Shown here: positions 1,553 to 64,000 of the stretch, piece after piece
Layout: each line of letters opens with the position of its first letter
How positions within the stretch are numbered: position 1 is the first letter of the stretch
Source: Eledone cirrhosa
Lineage: Eukaryota
DNA length: 64,000 bases
Assembly: GCA_964016885.1 (NCBI GenBank)
Contig: OZ024741.1
Location: 118,048,001 to 118,112,000 of the forward strand
Direction: 5' to 3'
The notes under the pieces: model-generated
What the model saw: only the letters and a program-made list of their open reading frames with translations
Database searches by the model: none
What the model was told of the DNA's origin: nothing
Program-made: the position numbers and the translations under genes

Positions 1553-1688
1553 AGAGAGAGAGAGTGAGAGAGACATATAATACACTAACCTATCTATCAA
1601 TCTTTGTCTCACAAATATTTTAGTCTGTTATATTATCTTATATATTAGATTATACTACATTATATATGTTTCCCATCTATTTTTGTAG

Positions 1689-1772
1689 TTCTAAAGCAAC
1701 ATGGATTTGGAAAGCATAAATATTTCCATTTGCTGGTAGCGGAATGTAGCCCTGACGATGATTCGGAACTAG
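1689..1772 (+). CDS. Diamine/spermidine-spermine N-acetyltransferase (SSAT, GNAT family), internal exon; earlier exons lie upstream of the window
   Basis: Acceptor ttttgtag| and donor |gtgaga. The 84-nt exon reads LKQHGFGKHKYFHLLVAECSPDDDSEL, resembling the SSAT segment DGFGEHPFYHCLVAE. Its phase fits the next exon. Confidence 0.88.
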
Positions 1773-1809
1773 GTGAGACTTTTATATTTGTTTTATTCCT
1801 TCATTGAAA

Positions 1810-4610
1810 AACTTGTAGAGATTTAGTAATACAACTAACTTCCTTTGACCAAGAATTTGGAATGGTTTAGTAATACAACTAACTTCCTTTGACCAAGAAT
1901 TTGGAATGGTTTAGTAATACAACTAACTTCCTTTGACCAAGAATTTGGAATGGTTTAGTAATACAACTAACTTCCTTTGACCAAGAATTTGGAATGGTTT
2001 AGTAATACAACTAACTTCCTTTGACCAAGATTTTGGAATGGTTTAGTAATACAACTAACTTCCTTTGACCAAGAATTTGGAATGGTTTAGTAATACAACT
2101 AACTTCCTTTGACCAAGAATTTGGAATGGTTTAGTAATACAACTAACTTCCTTTGACCAAGAATTTGGAATGGTTTAGTAATACAACTAACTTCCTTTGA
2201 CCAAGAAATTGGAATGGTTTAGTAATACAACTAACTTCCTTTGACCAAGAATTTGGAATGGTTTAGTAATACAACTAACTTCCTTTGACCAAGAATTTGG
2301 AATGGTTTAGTAATACAACTAACTTCCTTTGACCAAGAATTTGGAATGGTTTAGTAATACAACTAACTTCCTTTGACCAAGAATTTGGAATGGTTTAGTA
2401 ATACAACTAACTTCCTTTGACCAAGAATTTGGAATGGTTTAGTAATACAACTAACTTCCTTTGACCAAGAATTTGGAATGGTTTAGTAATACAACTAACT
2501 TCCTTTAACCAAGAATTTGGAATGGTTTAGTAATACAACTAACTTCCTTTGACTAAGAATTTGGAATGGTTTAGTAATACAACTAACTTCCTTTAACCAA
2601 GAAATTGGAATGGTTTAGTAATACAACTAACTTCCTTTGACCAAGAATTTGGAATGGTTTAGTAATACAACTAACTTCCTTTGACCAAGAATTTGGAATG
2701 GTTTAGTAATACAACTAACTTCCTTTGACTAAGAATTTGGAATGGTTTAGTAATACAACTAACTTCCTTTAACCAAGAAATTGGAATGGTTTAGTAATAC
2801 AACTAACTTCCTTTGACCAAGAATTTGGAATGGTTTAGTAATACAACTAACTTCCTTTGACCAAGAATTTGGAATGGTTTAGTAATACAACTAACTTCCT
2901 TTAACCAAGAATTTGGAATGGTTTAGTAATACAACTAACTTCCTTTGACCAAGAATTTGGAATGGTTTAGTAATACAACTAACTTCCTTTGACCAAGAAT
3001 TTGTAGAGATTTAGTAATACAACTAACTTCCTTTGACCAAGAATTTGGAATGGTTTAGTAATACAACTAACTTCCTTTGACCAAGAATTTGGAATGGTTT
3101 AGTAATACAACTAACTTCCTTTGACCAAGAATTTGGAATGGTTTAGTAATACAACTAACTTCCTTTGACCAAGAATTTGGAATGGTTTAGTAATACAACT
3201 AACTTCCTTTGACCAAGAATTTGGAATGGTTTAGTAATACAACTAACTTCCTTTGACCAAGAATTTGGAATGGTTTAGTAATACAACTAACTTCCTTTGA
3301 CCAAGAATTTGGAATGGTTTAGTAATACAACTAACTTCCTTTAACCAAGAATTTGGAATGGTTTAGTAATACAACTAACTTCCTTTAACCAAGAATTTGG
3401 AATGGTTTAGTAATACAACTAACTTCCTTTGACTAAGAATTTGGAATGGTTTAGTAATACAACTAACTTCCTTTAACCAAGAAATTGGAATGGTTTAGTA
3501 ATACAACTAACTTCCTTTGACCAAGAATTTGGAATGGTTTAGTAATACAACTAACTTCCTTTGACCAAGAATTTGGAATGGTTTAGTAATACAACTAACT
3601 TCCTTTGACTAAGAATTTGGAATGGTTTAGTAATACAACTAACTTCCTTTAACCAAGAAATTGGAATGGTTTAGTAATACAACTAACTTCCTTTGACCAA
3701 GAATTTGGAATGGTTTAGTAATACAACTAACTTCCTTTGACCAAGAATTTGGAATGGTTTAGTAATACAACTAACTTCCTTTAACCAAGAATTTGGAATG
3801 GTTTAGTAATACAACTAACTTCCTTTGACCAAGATTTTGGAATGGTTTAGTAATACAACTAACTTCCTTTGACCAAGAATTTGGAATGGTTTAGTAATAC
3901 AACTAACTTCCTTTGACCAAGAATTTGGAATGGTTTAGTAATACAACTAACTTCCTTTGACCAAGAATTTGGAATGGTTTAGTAATACAACTAACTTCCT
4001 TTGACCAAGAAATTGGAATGGTTTAGTAATACAACTAACTTCCTTTGACCAAGAATTTGGAATGGTTTAGTAATACAACTAACTTCCTTTGACCAAGAAT
4101 TTGGAATGGTTTAGTAATACAACTAACTTCCTTTGACCAAGAATTTGGAATGGTTTAGTAATACAACTAACTTCCTTTGACCAAGAATTTGGAATGGTTT
4201 AGTAATACAACTAACTTCCTTTGACCAAGAATTTGTAGTGATTTAGTAATACAACTAACTTCCTTTGACCAAGAATTTGGAATGGTTTAGTAATACAACT
4301 AACTTCCTTTGACCAAGAATTTGTAGAGATTTAGTAATACAACTAACTTCCTTTGACCAAGAATTTGGAATGGTTTAGTAATACAACTAACTTCCTTTGA
4401 CCAAGAATTTGTAGAGATTTAGTAATACAACTAACTTTCTTTGACAAGAATTTGGAATGGTTTAGTAATACAACTAACTTCCTTTGACCAAGAGTTTGTA
4501 GAGATTTAGTAATACAACTAACTTCCTTTGACCAAGAATTTGTAGTGATTTAGTAATACAACTAACTTCCTTTGACCAAGAATTTGTAAAGATTTAGTAA
4601 TACAAATAAT
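1810..4610. repeat. 44-bp tandem satellite, about 63 copies, in an SSAT intron
   Basis: Unit TTTAGTAATACAACTAACTTCCTTTGACCAAGAATTTGGAATGG repeats head-to-tail (1822, 1866, ...) with no spacers. Confidence 0.98.
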
Positions 4611-5181
4611 TTCGACTTTTACATGAGTATATACGGAATATATATATATATTTTGCCACAACAAAGGCGCCCACTACACTGTAAATGTGGTTGGCATTAG
4701 GAAGGGCATCCAGCCATAGAAACCAAGCCAAAATCAGTTCTGTATGAGTAAGACACAGTCACCTGATCTGACATTTAATGGTGATGAAGATATATACATA
4801 CATATTTAAACCATAAACAGAGCTTTGTTAAAGTTTGGTGAAAAAAACTGAATGTTACTTATTCCATCTGTTATACAATTGCTTATGTACTAATCTCCTT
4901 ATAATATATAACCAGCAATTTCTCTGTCTGTCTGTCCGAAGTGGAAACATGTGCGCGCGTGGTTGCTATCTCTCTCTCTCTCCAGTTATCCCTCTTTTAG
5001 TCTGTCTGTTTCTCTCACTCTCACTCTTTCTCTTTGTAACACACTAACATCCCTCCCCTCTATCGCTGTGACGAATGGGGAGATTGAGGAGGAGGAGGAG
5101 GAGGAGGAGGAGAGAGTCACTTCGTCACTTCACCTCTGCCTTTCTTTCTCTCCCCTCTCACTCCCTCATTACGTACAGACA

Positions 5182-36218: not shown

Positions 36219-37345
36219 ATGCTTTGGTAGGGTCATGTTGTCAATAAGAAACACACGCACCAGTTGCTTTCACTTCAATTTATTATAAATTAAATTTATA
36301 AATTTAAGAATTTATAAATTTCCGGTTGGTTGGTTGGTTCCATAACCAGACGATTGTTCATATATTGTCAAAGTTCTTTCGCCACACATTCTGTGACCTC
36401 TTCAGTGACTGGGGATTCTTTTCTTTGTTTTTGTGCCTCTCCTTTGTTCTGTCCTACGCCTTCTTGTTTGTGTGTGTGTTGTGTGCTTAGTTTGCGCATG
36501 TGTTACATCCGGGTGTCTGTGTGTGTTTATATTTGTTTATTTATTTGTTTATTTACATGTTACTGGTTGGTTGTTTGTTCTATGTGTGTGCGTGTTTTCA
36601 TTTTGTCCTTAATTGTAAGTTGTGATGTTGCTATTCCATTCATGTTTTCTATTTAATTTTGGTTGGAGTTCATTTATGTTTATTGCCTCTGTGATTTGTC
36701 TAAACATTGCGTCTTTTCTGTGTGAGGATTCTATTTTTATTTCTATGTTCTCTAATTTACCCTTATGTTCTATTTTAGCATGTTGGTGGAGTACAGATGA
36801 TTCTTTACTATCTTGAAGCTCTCGCCAGTGTTCATTTATCCGTTCTCCTATACTACGAGCTGTCTCACCTATGTACACTATATTCTTATCTCTACATTGT
36901 CCTTCAGTACATCTTATGCTATATACTACATTTCTAGTTTTACAGTTAATATGGGGACTTAGTTTACAGATTATACATTTCTTATGTATACAGGGAGGTC
37001 TTTGAAAAGGGTATGTATTGCTAATAAGTGTTTTTATGGAGGTACCTGGTCTTTCTACTATCTTAATATTGAGTTTATGTTTATCTAGGGCCCTTCTAAA
37101 TTTGTAAGCTAATTCACCTCTAGGGGTTGTATTGATGAACATTACACTCTGGTATTTATTGCTATCATACCATGAGTTTATTCTATTAACCTTATTCCTA
37201 GTTCTTTCTATTCTATTCCAAAATTTGCTCCTATACAAGGGGCAGGTCCCATTTGTATCATTATTTACCATTTTTTCCCATTTGGTTCTGGCTCCTCTAT
37301 ATATTCTGATTTTATCTCTCTGATTGTAACCAGAGAACTGCATAC
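36210..37345 (-). mobile_element. 5'-truncated Penelope-like element (GIY-YIG endonuclease ORF 36609-37343 plus 3' pLTR)
   Basis: CIHKKCIIC...CKTRNVVYSIRC...YIGETARSIGERINEH...RQITEAINI...LNRKHEW. A hammerhead-like motif lies downstream and (TA)n lies at both ends. Confidence 0.9.
36367..36409 (-). ncRNA. Minimal type I hammerhead ribozyme in a PLE pLTR
   Basis: GUCA-CUGAAGA-G-GUCAC AGAAUGU GUGGC-GAAA-GAA-CUU^UGAC. Degenerate relatives occur at 40694-40737 and about 50565-50603. Confidence 0.65.
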
Positions 37346-53904: not shown

Positions 53905-56883
53905 ACGATATTAAACAAATGGAAACTATATTTATAAAACCATATTTATTTCGTTATATATATTAAAAATATGTTATGCCTTCCTCAGACAAAATACAAT
54001 ACATAAGCTGTTTTATAAATAATTAGTGACATACCTTGTGATAATGCAACTTCCTTTTAAAAAGTTGATTTGGTAGTGAAACTGTTATGATAGTTATATA
54101 GAAAGAAAACGAAGATGAGAAGAAGAAGATGAAGAGATGTATGCAAATAAAAAAAAATTAAAAAAAAGAAAAAAAAAAGAAGAGGATGAAGAGATGTATG
54201 CAAAGAAAAACAACGGAGCGAGATAGAGAGACAAGGAGAGAGAGAAATACATTGATGGTGAAAAACATAGTAGGCTGCTTTTTGACAGATGATCATCGTA
54301 TATGTGAGAGGTTAAGGGAAGGGATACAGTTAAATTAGTGTATAGGAGAAAAAGAAAGAAAGATGATATATTTAAAATATATTAAAAATATATTATGTCT
54401 CATCCATTTGAATTATCAATTTTTATGAATTAGGTATTATAATGTAAATATCAGTATTCATGAATGAGACACATATCCATAATGTGTGAAAAAAATGACC
54501 ACATGCTCAGTTAAAAATTCTTAGGTCTATAAGCAAAATCTGAGATAAAACTTCAAACATAAGTATATATGCATTCTCGTGAAAAAAGAGAAAAGAGAAG
54601 GTTATCTCAAATTCAAGTTGATAAATATAGACGCACATGTGAACCTACGTGATACGCTGCACTGATTCTTATATTTCATGAAAAACTTCAATGCGTTAGA
54701 AAAGATTCCACCCTACATACATTTACATACATATATACATATATATAGACACAAAACATATAAGATATACATTAACATCTAAAATAACATTCCAGCCTCA
54801 CTTGCATGATCATCGATCAAGCATAGAGTAGACAACAGATATCAATATTAAAATTAAAAACGCCAAGAATATCTTCGTCACTCCACAGAGTATCTAGGGA
54901 CGCAAGAGAACATAGTATGCCACGCATATCGGTCATAGAATCAGAGTCAAAAGCAAACAAAACCAAAATTGTTCACCAAGCCTTATTTAGCAGAAATCAT
55001 TCAAAACTTATTCTACAAATGCTCTTATATTTATTATAGAAGTTTATCCAGCTTAAAAATTTATTCAAAAGATTGGGGACAACGCCAATTATAGGGTAGT
55101 TTATTTAATCTCATTAATTATATATTCATGCAGAAAGGTTTTAAAAAAAATTTAAGGAATCGAAATATTTATCGCCAAGTATCATAAATAGTCAAATACC
55201 TTAAGTAAATATACTACATTTTATATTACATTTTAAATTTATATTTATATTTAAATGTTGAGTTCAATCTATGTCTGCAACAGCTGAATAAATTGGTTCG
55301 TAAATTAAGGGAATTTTTAGATTTTAATATAAAGAATATCTCCTCCGCGCAGAGGTCACAAGTCTCAGAAGAGGAATTAAAAGGAATCCCTTTTGAGACT
55401 ATATTCCAGACCATCGAATATCCAACTTTATCATGCTTAAGTTGCCAGAGTAACCCTGACAGCGATGTTGAGGATTTTTTATTTGGATCCGTGAAAGAAT
55501 TTTTGTGATTATTATAGCGAAGTTTAAATTCTGTCGAGGTGGAACCAACATAATTAAAAGAATTTAAATCAGTTCTAACATTACAGTTGTATATTATATT
55601 TTTAACTAAGCAATTGTTATTTAGCGGACATTTAGATCTATCTCTACAGTTACAGTTTTTTAGTTGAATATTGTTTAGGCTATTTTCGGTATTTTGGCTA
55701 GGTTTTAGATTCCTATTATTTATTCTATTAATATTTTGTGCTAAATTTTTGGTGGACGAGTACGTTAATTTTATAGTATGTCTATTAAAAATTGAGTGAT
55801 ACTTATGTGTTCTAGGGAAGCGTTTGTCAAGAGCATTAAAAAATAGTTTAGCGATGTGGGTTTTAATGTTTAGTGAGAAAGGGGGGGGGGGAACCATATT
55901 ATATTTCTAGTTCTATTTCTTTTCTGGTTTTTGAAATTATTGTAGTGCTTTCTATTATAGTTGTTAAAGTTGTTACTGTAATTAAAATTGTTGTTATTTT
56001 GGTTAGTTTGTCTATTATCGATGTACATAATTTTATCACTATATCCTGCTCTAGCTAAAGCTTCATTATAATACTGGGCTTTTTCGTCAAAAATATTTTT
56101 ATTGGAAGAGATTCTAGAGATACGTTTTTGAACAGAGTTCACTATAGTATTTTTGACAGATCTGGGGTGATTGGAGCTAAAATTGACATAATTCAAGTTT
56201 TCATTTAACTTGTGAAATGGATAGTGAAGACATGTGTTGAGATTAAATGTTACGTCTAGGAAATTGACTATTCTATGGTTATTCTCAATTTCTATTTTTA
56301 GATTAAGGTAATTAAAAAATTGTATAATTTGTTTTCTTTTCTTATTTAGTTCAGAGTTATTATTTTCAATAAGTAAAAGCATGTCATCTCTATATAAACC
56401 TCCGGTAACACCGGGTATTTTCCTATGCAGCGAATTAATTATAAATAGGCCCACAAGGTCCGTTACCTGAGCTGAGTCTGATGATCCCATAGTAATGTCA
56501 AAATTATTATCTCTATCTGCCCTAGTCCATAGTTGGTTATTAAATTCTATCAAAGTTTTCCTTGCCGATAATATAATGTGCATTTCATTGCTAGTTAGGT
56601 CTGTATGCTTGAATGCGTAATTTAGTGCCTTATTAAGTAGATTAGGGGTAATGGATGAATAGTAGTTAGCAATATCTAGTTGAATAAATTTATTATTATT
56701 GTTATATTTAATTTCATTAAACCACTCAATGACCTCCCCAGTTCCCTTCCACAAGGTCAAGCCAGGTAAACAATTCAAGTCCTTAATTTACTGTATCACT
56801 CTGTCTAGAATGTTCTTGCTAAGTTTACCCAGGTCAGATTTTGATGGTGCAATCAACCTGACTGGCAAGTCATTTTCAAAATT
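53905..56883 (-). mobile_element. 5'-truncated Penelope-like element (Nematis-like RT + GIY-YIG; ORFs 55870-56778 and 55226-55897)
   Basis: RLIAPSKSDLGK, FIQLDIANYYSSI, FDITMGSSDSAQ, LYRDD, NFLDVTF, SNHP, CNC...CPL...IIY...YVGST...FKLRYNNH and CDLC. There is a frameshift in the G-run near 55885. Confidence 0.92.
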
Positions 56884-60550: not shown

Positions 60551-60588
60551 CCTTTACCGGTTTCGCAGTTCTTCTGCTTTTCAAAAGG
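60551..60588 (-). ncRNA. Minimal type I hammerhead ribozyme with a U3-A8 core variant
   Basis: CCUU-UUGAAAA-GCAG AAGAA CUGC-GAAA-CCG-GUA^AAGG, followed by AATAAA, at the 3' end of the PLE. Confidence 0.75.
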
Positions 60589-61626: not shown

Positions 61627-63897
61627 TTAAACCTTATTTAATGTTGGTCTATATTTTTGAATAAACATATTTTCCTTATTTATTCGCATTTGTTCTGTTG
61701 TATTGTTAGCGCAAAGGTAAAATGGGAAGACTTGGAATTTGGGTGTCTTATTACTTGCGCAAATGTCTAGATATGCACTTAGTGGTATTTGTCTCGTGGT
61801 TGGATCTCGTAATTGTTGGCGATGAAATGTCATTCTGTTTCTGAGTGTGAGTTTAGTTTGTCCTATATAATCTTCATTGCATCCTTTACATTTAACGGCA
61901 TAAATTAGATTTTTTGATGAGCAAGTGAAGTGATTTTTTACAGTAAAATTTTGTCCTGATTTAAATGTATACGTGTTGCCTTCAATGAGGTGAGTGCAGG
62001 TTCCACAATTAGAGCGACCACATTTTTTGATACTTGGTTGTGGGTTTGTGGTAGGTAATTTGGCATTGGTGAGTAATGTTTTCAGTGATTTTGGTTGTCT
62101 TTTGCTTTTGATTATTTTGTGTGTTTCAAGGGCTTTTTTCATTCTTGGGTTTTGTTTTAGTAGTGGGATGTTATTGTGAATAGTGTTGTAGGCTTCCGCA
62201 TTTCTTGGGTTGTGTGTTGAGATATATGATAGAATATTGGACGTACCTTGAATTTGTTTCTGTTTCCGTAATTCATCAATGCCTATTGCTTTAGCCCTTT
62301 CTATTCCATTATTTATTAGTAATAGTGGGTACTCTCTCTCAAGTAGAATTTCCTTTAATTCTTGAAGTCTTTTATTTCGCGTTTCATAATTGGAGACAAT
62401 TGTGCAAATTCTTCTTGCTAGGTTAAAAGGAATGTTCGTCTTCGTGTGCTTTGGATGGTTGGAGGTGAATAGCAGATATTGTTTGGAATCTGTTGGTTTG
62501 TAGTGTATGTCAGTTTCGATATTTGTGTCTTTTTTTGTGATTAAGATGTCCAGAAATGGGAGTTGATCTTGGCTGTATTCCATTGTGAATTGGATGTGGT
62601 TATTGATGCCGTTTATTAAGTTTTTGAAATCCTTCAGTTGGTCGAGTGTGTGGGACCAAAGAATGAGGCAATCATCCAAGTAGCGTTTCCAATTCTCTGA
62701 TAAATATTTGTGGAAGTTCAATCCGTATTTTGATTTGGACTGTTCATATATCTGGACTTCTAAGTATGCCATGACTAAGTTGGCATAAGTTGGAGCGGCT
62801 TTTGTGCCCATCGCAGTCCCCGATATTTGCTTGTAAGTATTGCCATCGAAATCAAAAAAGTTGTTCTGTAGGATGAATTTTAATCCCTCGGTGATGAAGC
62901 TTTTTTCTATTCTGTCAGGTATCTCATTGGGATATTTCTCTAGCCAGAATCCTATTGCTTCTAGTCCGTATTGGTGTGGGATCGTTGTGTAGAGATTCAC
63001 TACATCGAAAGACACAATAATAGTGTCGTTGTTGACATGTTTGGGGAGGTGGTTTAAGAGGTCCAGATCGTCTCTTACAAGGCTTGGTATGTGTTTCAGT
63101 ATTGGTTTCAGTAGTATGTCTATAAAGTTGCTCAATCTGTGTGTTTCACATTGTGGGCCCGCTACAATTGGTCTTAATTTAAGGTCTGTGGGGTATTGTG
63201 TGTTCACGCAGGCTGAGGTGGATTGTTTACAGGCATCGTTGATTATTTTACATTTGTGGATCTTCGGAAGTCCGTAAAGGTTGCTGGTTTTGTATTCAAA
63301 ATGTGTTAAATAATCGCGTTCCTTTTTAGTTAGGTCTTCCTGGTATCGATAAATCAGTGTGTTTAATTTGGTCATTATTTTTGATTGCTGGTAGTTTTTT
63401 ACTCTTTTATAGTAATTAGCATTTTGTAAGAGAGAGAACATAGAATTTTTATATTTTTCAGCCTCCATAATGACAACAGTACTTCCCTTGTCCGCTTCCT
63501 TAATTACAATGTCCGGATTGTTTTTTAGTTCATGGATAATCTCCCATTCCCTTCGACTTGTGTTGGGTTTGGGTTTAGGTTGCGGTAGTTCATGGTATGG
63601 GAAGGTAGCTATGTGGTCACAAAATTTGTCCAGAACTCTGTTTCTACCTTTTGTTGGGTTGTAGCTGCTTTTATTCCGTACAATTGATTCGTCGTTATTC
63701 TCCTTGTCAAAGAATTCCTCTGTGAGACGTAATTTTCTACAGAAGTGTGAGATATCGTCATTTATCTCGTTGGGGTTAGGATATTGTGGTGTTGGTGTGA
63801 ATTTCAGACCTTTGGAGAGAATTTTTACTTGTTGGGCTGAGAGGTTTGTATTTGAAATGTTAATTATTTTCGGTTTTTCAAAATCGGTTTGTGCCAC
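61627..63897 (-). CDS. Penelope-like element RT + GIY-YIG endonuclease (Neptune-like), uninterrupted 756 aa; the element extends from about 60480 to the window end
   Basis: LSKGLKFTP, IKEADKG, LYGLPKIHK, RPIV, FDVVNLYT, GTAMGTKAAPTYANL, RYLDD, FLDI, KPTD, HP, a CxxxxCxxC linker, and LIYAVKC...YIGQT...R...E...LN. Confidence 0.96.
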   Translation of the reverse strand: MAQTDFEKPKIINISNTNLSAQQVKILSKGLKFTPTPQYPNPNEINDDISHFCRKLRLTEEFFDKENNDESIVRNKSSYNPTKGRNRVLDKFCDHIATFPYHELPQPKPKPNTSRREWEIIHELKNNPDIVIKEADKGSTVVIMEAEKYKNSMFSLLQNANYYKRVKNYQQSKIMTKLNTLIYRYQEDLTKKERDYLTHFEYKTSNLYGLPKIHKCKIINDACKQSTSACVNTQYPTDLKLRPIVAGPQCETHRLSNFIDILLKPILKHIPSLVRDDLDLLNHLPKHVNNDTIIVSFDVVNLYTTIPHQYGLEAIGFWLEKYPNEIPDRIEKSFITEGLKFILQNNFFDFDGNTYKQISGTAMGTKAAPTYANLVMAYLEVQIYEQSKSKYGLNFHKYLSENWKRYLDDCLILWSHTLDQLKDFKNLINGINNHIQFTMEYSQDQLPFLDILITKKDTNIETDIHYKPTDSKQYLLFTSNHPKHTKTNIPFNLARRICTIVSNYETRNKRLQELKEILLEREYPLLLINNGIERAKAIGIDELRKQKQIQGTSNILSYISTHNPRNAEAYNTIHNNIPLLKQNPRMKKALETHKIIKSKRQPKSLKTLLTNAKLPTTNPQPSIKKCGRSNCGTCTHLIEGNTYTFKSGQNFTVKNHFTCSSKNLIYAVKCKGCNEDYIGQTKLTLRNRMTFHRQQLRDPTTRQIPLSAYLDICASNKTPKFQVFPFYLCANNTTEQMRINKENMFIQKYRPTLNKV

Positions 63898-64000
63898 CGG
63901 GTGTCGTGAGTCCTGTAGCCTTGGTCTAAAAAATGATTTTTCTGGAATGTTTTTTCATTGGTATTATTATATCTAATGGTATTTCCCCTGTTGTTGTGTG

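Follow-up and report, generated by a model that had tools for sequence, protein, structure and literature searches.

A minimal hammerhead motif with a U3-A8 core from the terminal repeat of a young Penelope-like retrotransposon with many copies in Eledone cirrhosa

Natural covariation of C3-G8 to U3-A8 in hammerheads was reported by Perreault et al. 2011 (PMC3088659), where U3-A8 ribozymes are cited second-hand as active in vitro. In pairwise mutants of one type III hammerhead, rescue in this region was obtained by the G-C swap only (PMC9901934). Cervera and De la Pena 2014 (PMC4209133) found U3-A8 in the Cercyon Penelope element of S. mansoni (~1,300 hits), described motifs with a small palindromic helix III in shrimp, rotifer and mosquito elements, and noted that loop 1 of minimal Penelope motifs is poorly defined. 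A minimal S. mansoni motif showed no activity as a monomer and weak activity as a dimer or trimer. The hammerhead of the anole Penelope element PAc (Poseidon; Frangieh et al. 2024, PMC11167929) requires the protein of the element for cutting, and this element has two reverse-transcription starts and an uncut template. The role of Penelope hammerheads was described as unclear by Craig et al. 2021 (PMC8557442).

The motif described here lies in a window of 64,000 nucleotides of the E. cirrhosa genome (the whole stretch of DNA that was analysed, contig OZ024741.1, 118,048,001 to 118,112,000), and it is a further example of a known variant in a known setting. Novelty of the U3-A8 pair is not supported: it was already published in 2014 for the Penelope minimal hammerheads of S. 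mansoni (PMC4209133). Like Cercyon of S. mansoni, the locus has a type I motif in a pseudo-LTR with U3-A8, a short helix I, G10.1-C11.1 and a palindromic helix III region, and occurs mostly as solo or inverted copies. Unlike in Cercyon, A9 and stem II adjoin without an additional base, helix III has 2 bp and a 2-nt loop, and position 17 is A, where the two S. mansoni U3-A8 rows of figure S3 have U and G; copies are about ten times as numerous (15,841 matches versus about 1,300). Of the traits by which PMC4209133 defines Penelope minimal hammerheads, the pseudo-LTR position, the palindromic 15.2-16.2 pair plus loop 3, and G10.1-C11.1 were found; one further trait is absent here and also in the shrimp and Saccoglossus(2) rows of figure S3, so that it is typical and not universal. 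The Penelope-like hammerhead of Marsupenaeus japonicus in the same figure shares the 4-bp unbulged stem II, the 2-nt palindromic loop and A17, but it has C3-G8 and therefore no 3-17 pairing. The hammerheads of Perreault et al. 2011 (PMC3088659) show the same compensatory U3-A8, but no Penelope association is described in the available text.

Read on the minus strand from 60588 to 60551, the RNA letters of the motif are CCUU UUGAAAA GCAG AAGAA CUGC GAA ACCGGU A AAGG (coordinates of all features in Table 1). The type I hammerhead core consensus is matched except at C3-G8, where U3 (60584) is paired with A8 (60579); the core reads U3 U4 G5 A6 A7 A8 A9, with G12 A13 A14 present and A17 at position 17. 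Three helices surround the core: stem I (CCUU/AAGG, 4 bp, an open helix), stem II (GCAG/CUGC, 4 bp, with G10.1-C11.1) and a 2-bp helix III, made of an A-U and a C-G pair inside ACCGGU. The cleavage triplet is GUA, and the cut is predicted between 60555 and 60554. A descriptor in which any Watson-Crick 3-8 pair was permitted matched twice in the 64-kb window, at this motif and at a C3-G8 motif at 36405, whereas 300 dinucleotide shuffles of the 1,152-nt region 3' of the ORF gave no match. The hammerhead identity assigned initially, with a compensatory U3-A8 pair and GUA, was borne out. The stems had also been called complete, which is correct for stems I and II, but stem III has only 2 bp and, with its 2-nt loop, is absent from the predicted monomer fold. 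A second hammerhead motif with C3-G8, a bulged G, a 6-bp stem II and a non-palindromic AGAACU was observed at 36367-36409 on the minus strand, ~200 nt past a GIY-YIG fragment (~36610-37000) of another, abundant Penelope-like family.

Table 1. Features of the element and its hammerhead motif, with window positions unless a locus is named
Feature	Position	Strand	Evidence or remark
Minimal type I hammerhead motif, U3-A8 core	60551..60588	-	Descriptor, fold, covariation
ACCGGU palindrome, A15.1 to U16.1	60556..60561	-	Helix III of 2 bp with 2-nt loop
AATAAA	60540..60545	-	10-15 nt past predicted cut; genomic copies read through
3' pseudo-LTR segment	60475..61048	-	Inverted repeat beyond window, L031:5430-6005, 98.6% identical
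ORF2, 775 stop-free codons: reverse transcriptase, Cys linker, GIY-YIG endonuclease	61627..63954	-	Pfam
ORF1 3' end	63864..64000	-	400 aa in full-length copies; shortened in window copy
U UUU UUA heptamer in ORF1/ORF2 overlap	63927..63933	-	Likely -1 ribosomal frameshift site
Family Bx loci	L239-L241, L312-L315; e.g. G000:C1:49728319-49728349

The host of the motif is a young, high-copy Penelope-like retrotransposon, in whose terminal repeat (pseudo-LTR) the motif lies. The features of endonuclease-bearing Penelope-like elements were all present: a reverse transcriptase (RT), a C-terminal GIY-YIG domain, pseudo-LTRs and a tail. The pseudo-LTR position, the RT-endonuclease ORF and the dispersed copies agree with the earlier assignment of the motif to a Penelope-like element. 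It was found once per repeat, in the 3' repeat, in the inverted upstream repeat and, in full-length copies, in the direct upstream repeat. When the assembly of 3.0 Gb was searched with the motif region, the best 30 matches were copies at dispersed sites; in many of them the sequence continues into the ORF, and many have an inverted partner. The window copy is 5'-truncated ~430 nt beyond the window edge (about L031:5430). Its inverted repeat bears a hammerhead in antisense orientation (L031:5896) as well as a tail of some 64 nt, and (TA)n arrays flank both the window copy and this repeat. With its RT, CX2-5CxxC linker, C-terminal GIY-YIG, inverted upstream pseudo-LTR, tail and (TA)n flanks, the element resembles the Neptune/Nematis-type elements and the Penelope-like elements with two ORFs (Craig et al. 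2021, PMC8557442). Two overlapping frames of 305 and 226 aa were also noted at 55226-56787 of the window (minus strand), resembling the RT and endonuclease of a third, broken Penelope-like element; they gave no Pfam match at E 0.001, and no hammerhead descriptor match was found nearby.

The Pfam matches of ORF2 were RVT_1 (E 1.3e-06), slightly below the curated cut-off, and GIY-YIG, above its cut-off. The linker between them is CGRSNCGTC, a Cys-rich linker as described for Neptune and Nematis (PMC8557442), and the first Met of ORF2 is residue 163. The element had been annotated initially as carrying an uninterrupted ORF; ORF2 is indeed free of stops over its length, but it is only the second of two overlapping ORFs, lying in the -1 frame of ORF1 with an overlap of ~90 nt. 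This two-frame layout was found family-wide, and a frameshift private to the window copy was therefore rejected. The heptamer U UUU UUA was present in 29 of 29 readable loci of the element's family. Among 32 rows for related families, 29 also had it (24 of those 29 in RT phase), about half of these related-family loci having been picked by a pattern that required the heptamer; in family H, which was picked without this requirement, it was found in 7 of 10 rows, followed by A. From the sequence it is likely that a -1 ribosomal frameshift joins ORF1 and ORF2. The hairpin predicted downstream of the heptamer is weak (-7.8 kcal/mol), whereas the frameshift in the legend of figure 1 of PMC8557442, which states that ORF1 of Penelope-like elements can be separated by a frameshift, is paired with a pseudoknot. 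Beyond this legend, no relevant description of the frameshift was found in the available text of the literature, and older papers may hold one. The sequence TTTTTTAG was also considered as a splice acceptor, which was rejected as a general explanation on account of the base that follows the heptamer: 7 of 10 family-H rows have A there, and three other loci have T, C or A. At ~61773 (minus strand), the second His of the endonuclease CCHH motif, seen in 12 of 18 matching records (not deduplicated), is replaced by Tyr in the window copy.

U3-A8 is the norm of the element's family. In genome searches with one stem II pattern, there were 15,841 matches with U3-A8, 80 with C3-A8, 41 with U3-G8 and 2 with C3-G8. 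A search with the flanks only gave 6,709 matches against 0 in the control, and the exact 38-mer was counted by eye in 73 of the first 100 listed. Because the family is young, the uniformity of U3-A8 within it shows descent and not selection. A C3-G8 ancestor inside the family was considered and rejected: the 2 matches compare with 0.2 expected from the single-mutant counts, and both are old copies with a broken stem I, so that they are not distinguishable from decay.

Other families with U3-A8 and ACCGGU were found with 1,273, 224 and 528 matches, besides smaller families; in the 224-match family, U3-A8 was present in 98 of the first 100 listed. In several related U3-A8 families, the motif lies downstream of related RT-endonuclease ORFs of roughly 43-59% identity. 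Twelve representatives with different stem sequences, one per family, were picked by eye, and ACCGGU was common to all 12 by construction of the search. For stem II, whose choice was biased by the picking, 45 of 48 cells were paired against a permutation mean of 25.1. For stem I, which was absent from the listings used but was seen when the final rows were named, 40 of 48 cells were paired against a mean of 23.4. The covariation p was printed as 0.0 for both stems (20,000 permutations), a test that overstates independence since the representatives are related. N7 was variable (A, C or U), and the other core bases were constant across families; stem I was merely 2 bp in several sister families (B1, C and D3). 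The flank-only search and the covariation across the 12 families showed that the stems are preserved in other copies and families, as had been anticipated for a genuine hammerhead. They also bear on the idea that the motif is a chance resemblance within A-rich untranslated sequence. This would accord with an unremarkable folding energy (z -0.94, 37 of 200 shuffles equally stable) and with the result that the Rfam covariance models, at E up to 5, gave no hammerhead family among 150 of 243 matches listed. But the descriptor found nothing in the 300 shuffles, the stems covary across families, and the more distant family H bears a C3-G8 motif at the same position; the likelihood of mere chance is practically nil, and the comparative data refute it.

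The ends of the copies were located relative to the predicted cut. Among 101 distinct motif contexts, 35 ended at 77 nt past the cut and 39 at 141 nt, while 16 continued into ORF1 and 11 were unclassified. No copy beginning at the predicted cut was seen among 128 matches to the sequence directly past it: the exact motif stood upstream in 116 of these, and a variant with one base changed in 11 of the remaining 12. Lying 77 or 141 nt beyond the cut, the ends of the copies therefore follow neither the cut nor AATAAA. The latter had been noted initially at the motif, and it does lie directly past it (60545-60540), but it does not mark the 3' end of the copies. The two end positions match the two reverse-transcription starts of the anole element (PMC11167929). 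Like PAc, the element has a motif in the pseudo-LTR, two reverse-transcription starts that would define the tail, and copy ends independent of the cut site. Unlike here, the motif of PAc has C3-G8, overlaps the ORF start and has a measured activity; in the present element, the ribozyme is predicted and the upstream motif lies 169 nt before the ORF1 start. We also considered an intron whose donor would be the cut site (G|GUAAAG) and whose acceptor would lie in the tail. No genomic copy with the predicted junction was found (at most 1 mismatch), and GT..AG ends were seen at 0 of 10 joints listed, so this idea appeared unsupported at the sequence level.

In our assessment, the best explanation, with a probability of roughly 0.58, is that the motif is a weak RNA cutter which needs a second copy via ACCGGU and is probably aided by the element's own protein. 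The weak dimer and trimer activity of a minimal S. mansoni motif (PMC4209133), the U3-A8 ribozymes cited as active (PMC3088659) and the protein-dependent anole hammerhead (PMC11167929) speak for it. A transcript that reads through a full-length copy would carry two motifs on the same strand. A same-strand motif was found upstream in 15 of 30 loci, which had been picked for holding the ORF1 region, and the two motifs are 4,646 nt apart in the full-length copy L319. Between two motif copies, the ACCGGU palindromes are predicted to form a 6-bp helix III; with the stem I strands swapped, this would give a double hammerhead, for which the predicted energy was -18.9 kcal/mol against -12.8 kcal/mol for two monomers. 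The cut after GUA would set free a unit RNA of ~4.65 kb. As U3 is able to pair with A17, this cut would be slow or partial, and new insertions would not require it, since the copies end 77 or 141 nt downstream. The initial annotation had suggested dimer-dependent cleavage from the palindrome. The palindrome does suit a dimer by the predicted energies, but there is no tandem dimer at the window locus: the upstream motif is antisense, so that no dimer could form in cis and one could form only in trans. Being 5'-truncated with an antisense partner motif, the window copy would be a passenger.

A different way to cut would be as a monomer, in which the element's protein closes the 2-bp helix III and the palindrome arises incidentally from the 2-nt loop of a hairpin. 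The protein-assisted hammerhead of the anole Penelope element (PMC11167929) would fit with this, as would the many genomic neighbours that are inverted pairs and unable to dimerise in cis. However, the 2-nt loop does not appear in the predicted monomer fold, the loop is self-complementary as in other Penelope motifs (PMC4209133), and half of the loci that reach ORF1 have a same-strand partner. Cutting as a monomer is hence judged quite improbable, and cutting through a second copy remains the preferred reading.

The predicted folds bear on the strength of the cutting. In the monomer, U3-A17 pairing extends stem I over the cut site with a predicted probability of 0.66, and the trapped dimer is predicted at -20.3 kcal/mol, 1.4 kcal/mol more stable than the active one (-18.9 kcal/mol). 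This pairing exceeded 0.5 in only 2 of the 12 representatives, of which 5 came from a search for copies without A17. The predicted U3-A17 trap mirrors the C3-G17 trap that was proposed for minimal hammerheads (PMC3884650). Also against efficient cutting, only the G-C swap gave rescue in the type III hammerhead mutants (PMC9901934), although U3-A8 ribozymes are cited as active elsewhere (PMC3088659). The motif is likely to cut RNA only weakly.

To this can be added the sister family Bx, in whose U3-A8 motif GCAA replaces GAAA (A13C): 10,500 matches had GCAA, against 35 with GAAA. Bx has a 3-bp U-A stem I and full-length ORFs, keeps stem II and the ACCGGU palindrome, and shows a protein identity of about 55-59% in most copies. 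A13C would be expected to abolish or cripple hammerhead activity; among the papers listed by a literature search, none linked the hammerhead ribozyme to A13C. Together, the predicted U3-A17 trap and the GCAA of Bx argue for weak or dispensable cleavage.

The motif could also be the descendant of a hammerhead without useful cutting in this lineage, retained as a structural signal (stem II plus ACCGGU) that would serve RNA pairing, protein binding or the placing of the reverse-transcription starts 77 and 141 nt downstream. Several of the above results would be accounted for in this way: the retention of U3-A8, stem II and the palindrome in the GCAA-core Bx, the predicted trap, and copy ends that ignore the cut site. 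Moreover, insertion of the anole element in vitro survives catalytic mutations, and its cut site coincided with no RNA-seq read end (PMC11167929); Naiad elements do well although they lack canonical hammerheads (PMC8557442). Against it, N7 and the stems differ between families, but the unpaired catalytic bases and the 3-8 pair do not, even where single branches of up to about 0.5 substitutions per site separate the families; this constancy is in part due to the construction of the search. Also against it, other families could have helped to mobilise Bx. We regard a purely structural signal as somewhat unlikely, and a weak cutter that acts through a second copy as the better account.

In family H (~48% identity), the motif at the position of the U3-A8 motif of the other families has C3-G8. 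In trees without an outgroup, H was placed on a long branch apart from all U3-A8 families with support of 100/100; two other Penelope fragments in the window were left out of the trees because they gave no usable alignment, and single branches between families reached about 0.5 substitutions per site. One could imagine that the lineage switched its hammerhead off stepwise, C3-G8 first giving way to U3-A8, with a U3-A17 lock where A17 is present, and A13C then becoming fixed, leaving a non-cutting signal. This reading is judged somewhat unlikely. If it were true, a ribozyme would have become a non-cutting signal for RNA pairing or protein binding, and a family with A13C would still have reached more than 10,000 copies; H (C3-G8), the family of the window copy (A; U3-A8/A17), C (U3-A8/C17) and Bx (A13C) would then form a natural series, which would let one ask what Penelope hammerheads are for. 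Neither the combination of U3-A8 with A17 nor a family with fixed A13C was found described in the available text of the literature, whose coverage was incomplete, and earlier reports are possible. In any case, the genome contains closely related families of recent activity with differences at positions 3/8, 13 and 17, and these provide a comparative system for cutting versus spread.

Canonical cores are in the majority genome-wide, with 169,610 matches against 10,775 in the reversed-pattern control (~159,000 above it), and for U3-A8 the pattern with an additional T had 45,598 matches, compared with 11,087 in its control. Searches for CUGANGA in this genome would miss at least 15,841 matches of the element's family, as well as the 10,500 of Bx. 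A 141-match family beginning TTGACAATCGCC has no stem I adjoining the core and was not counted as a hammerhead. Its loci (L129-L148) show a U3-A8-like start, a 4-bp stem and GAAAGUUCUC, and 2 of 20 lie downstream of a Penelope endonuclease. Two tandem arrays were also observed. At locus L269 (G000:C1:6519946-6521556), there are six tandem 316-bp units, each with a U3-A8 core, a 4-bp stem II, an ACAUGU palindrome and C17; no stem I directly adjoins the core in these units, and the array resembles the retrozyme type. The other array, at G000:C1:1239857-1244284, consists of tandem 311-bp units in two inverted blocks with canonical C3-G8 and an ACGCGU palindrome, and is likewise retrozyme-like. 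In the window itself, an array of 44-nt tandem repeats with units about 95% identical spans ~1664-4700.
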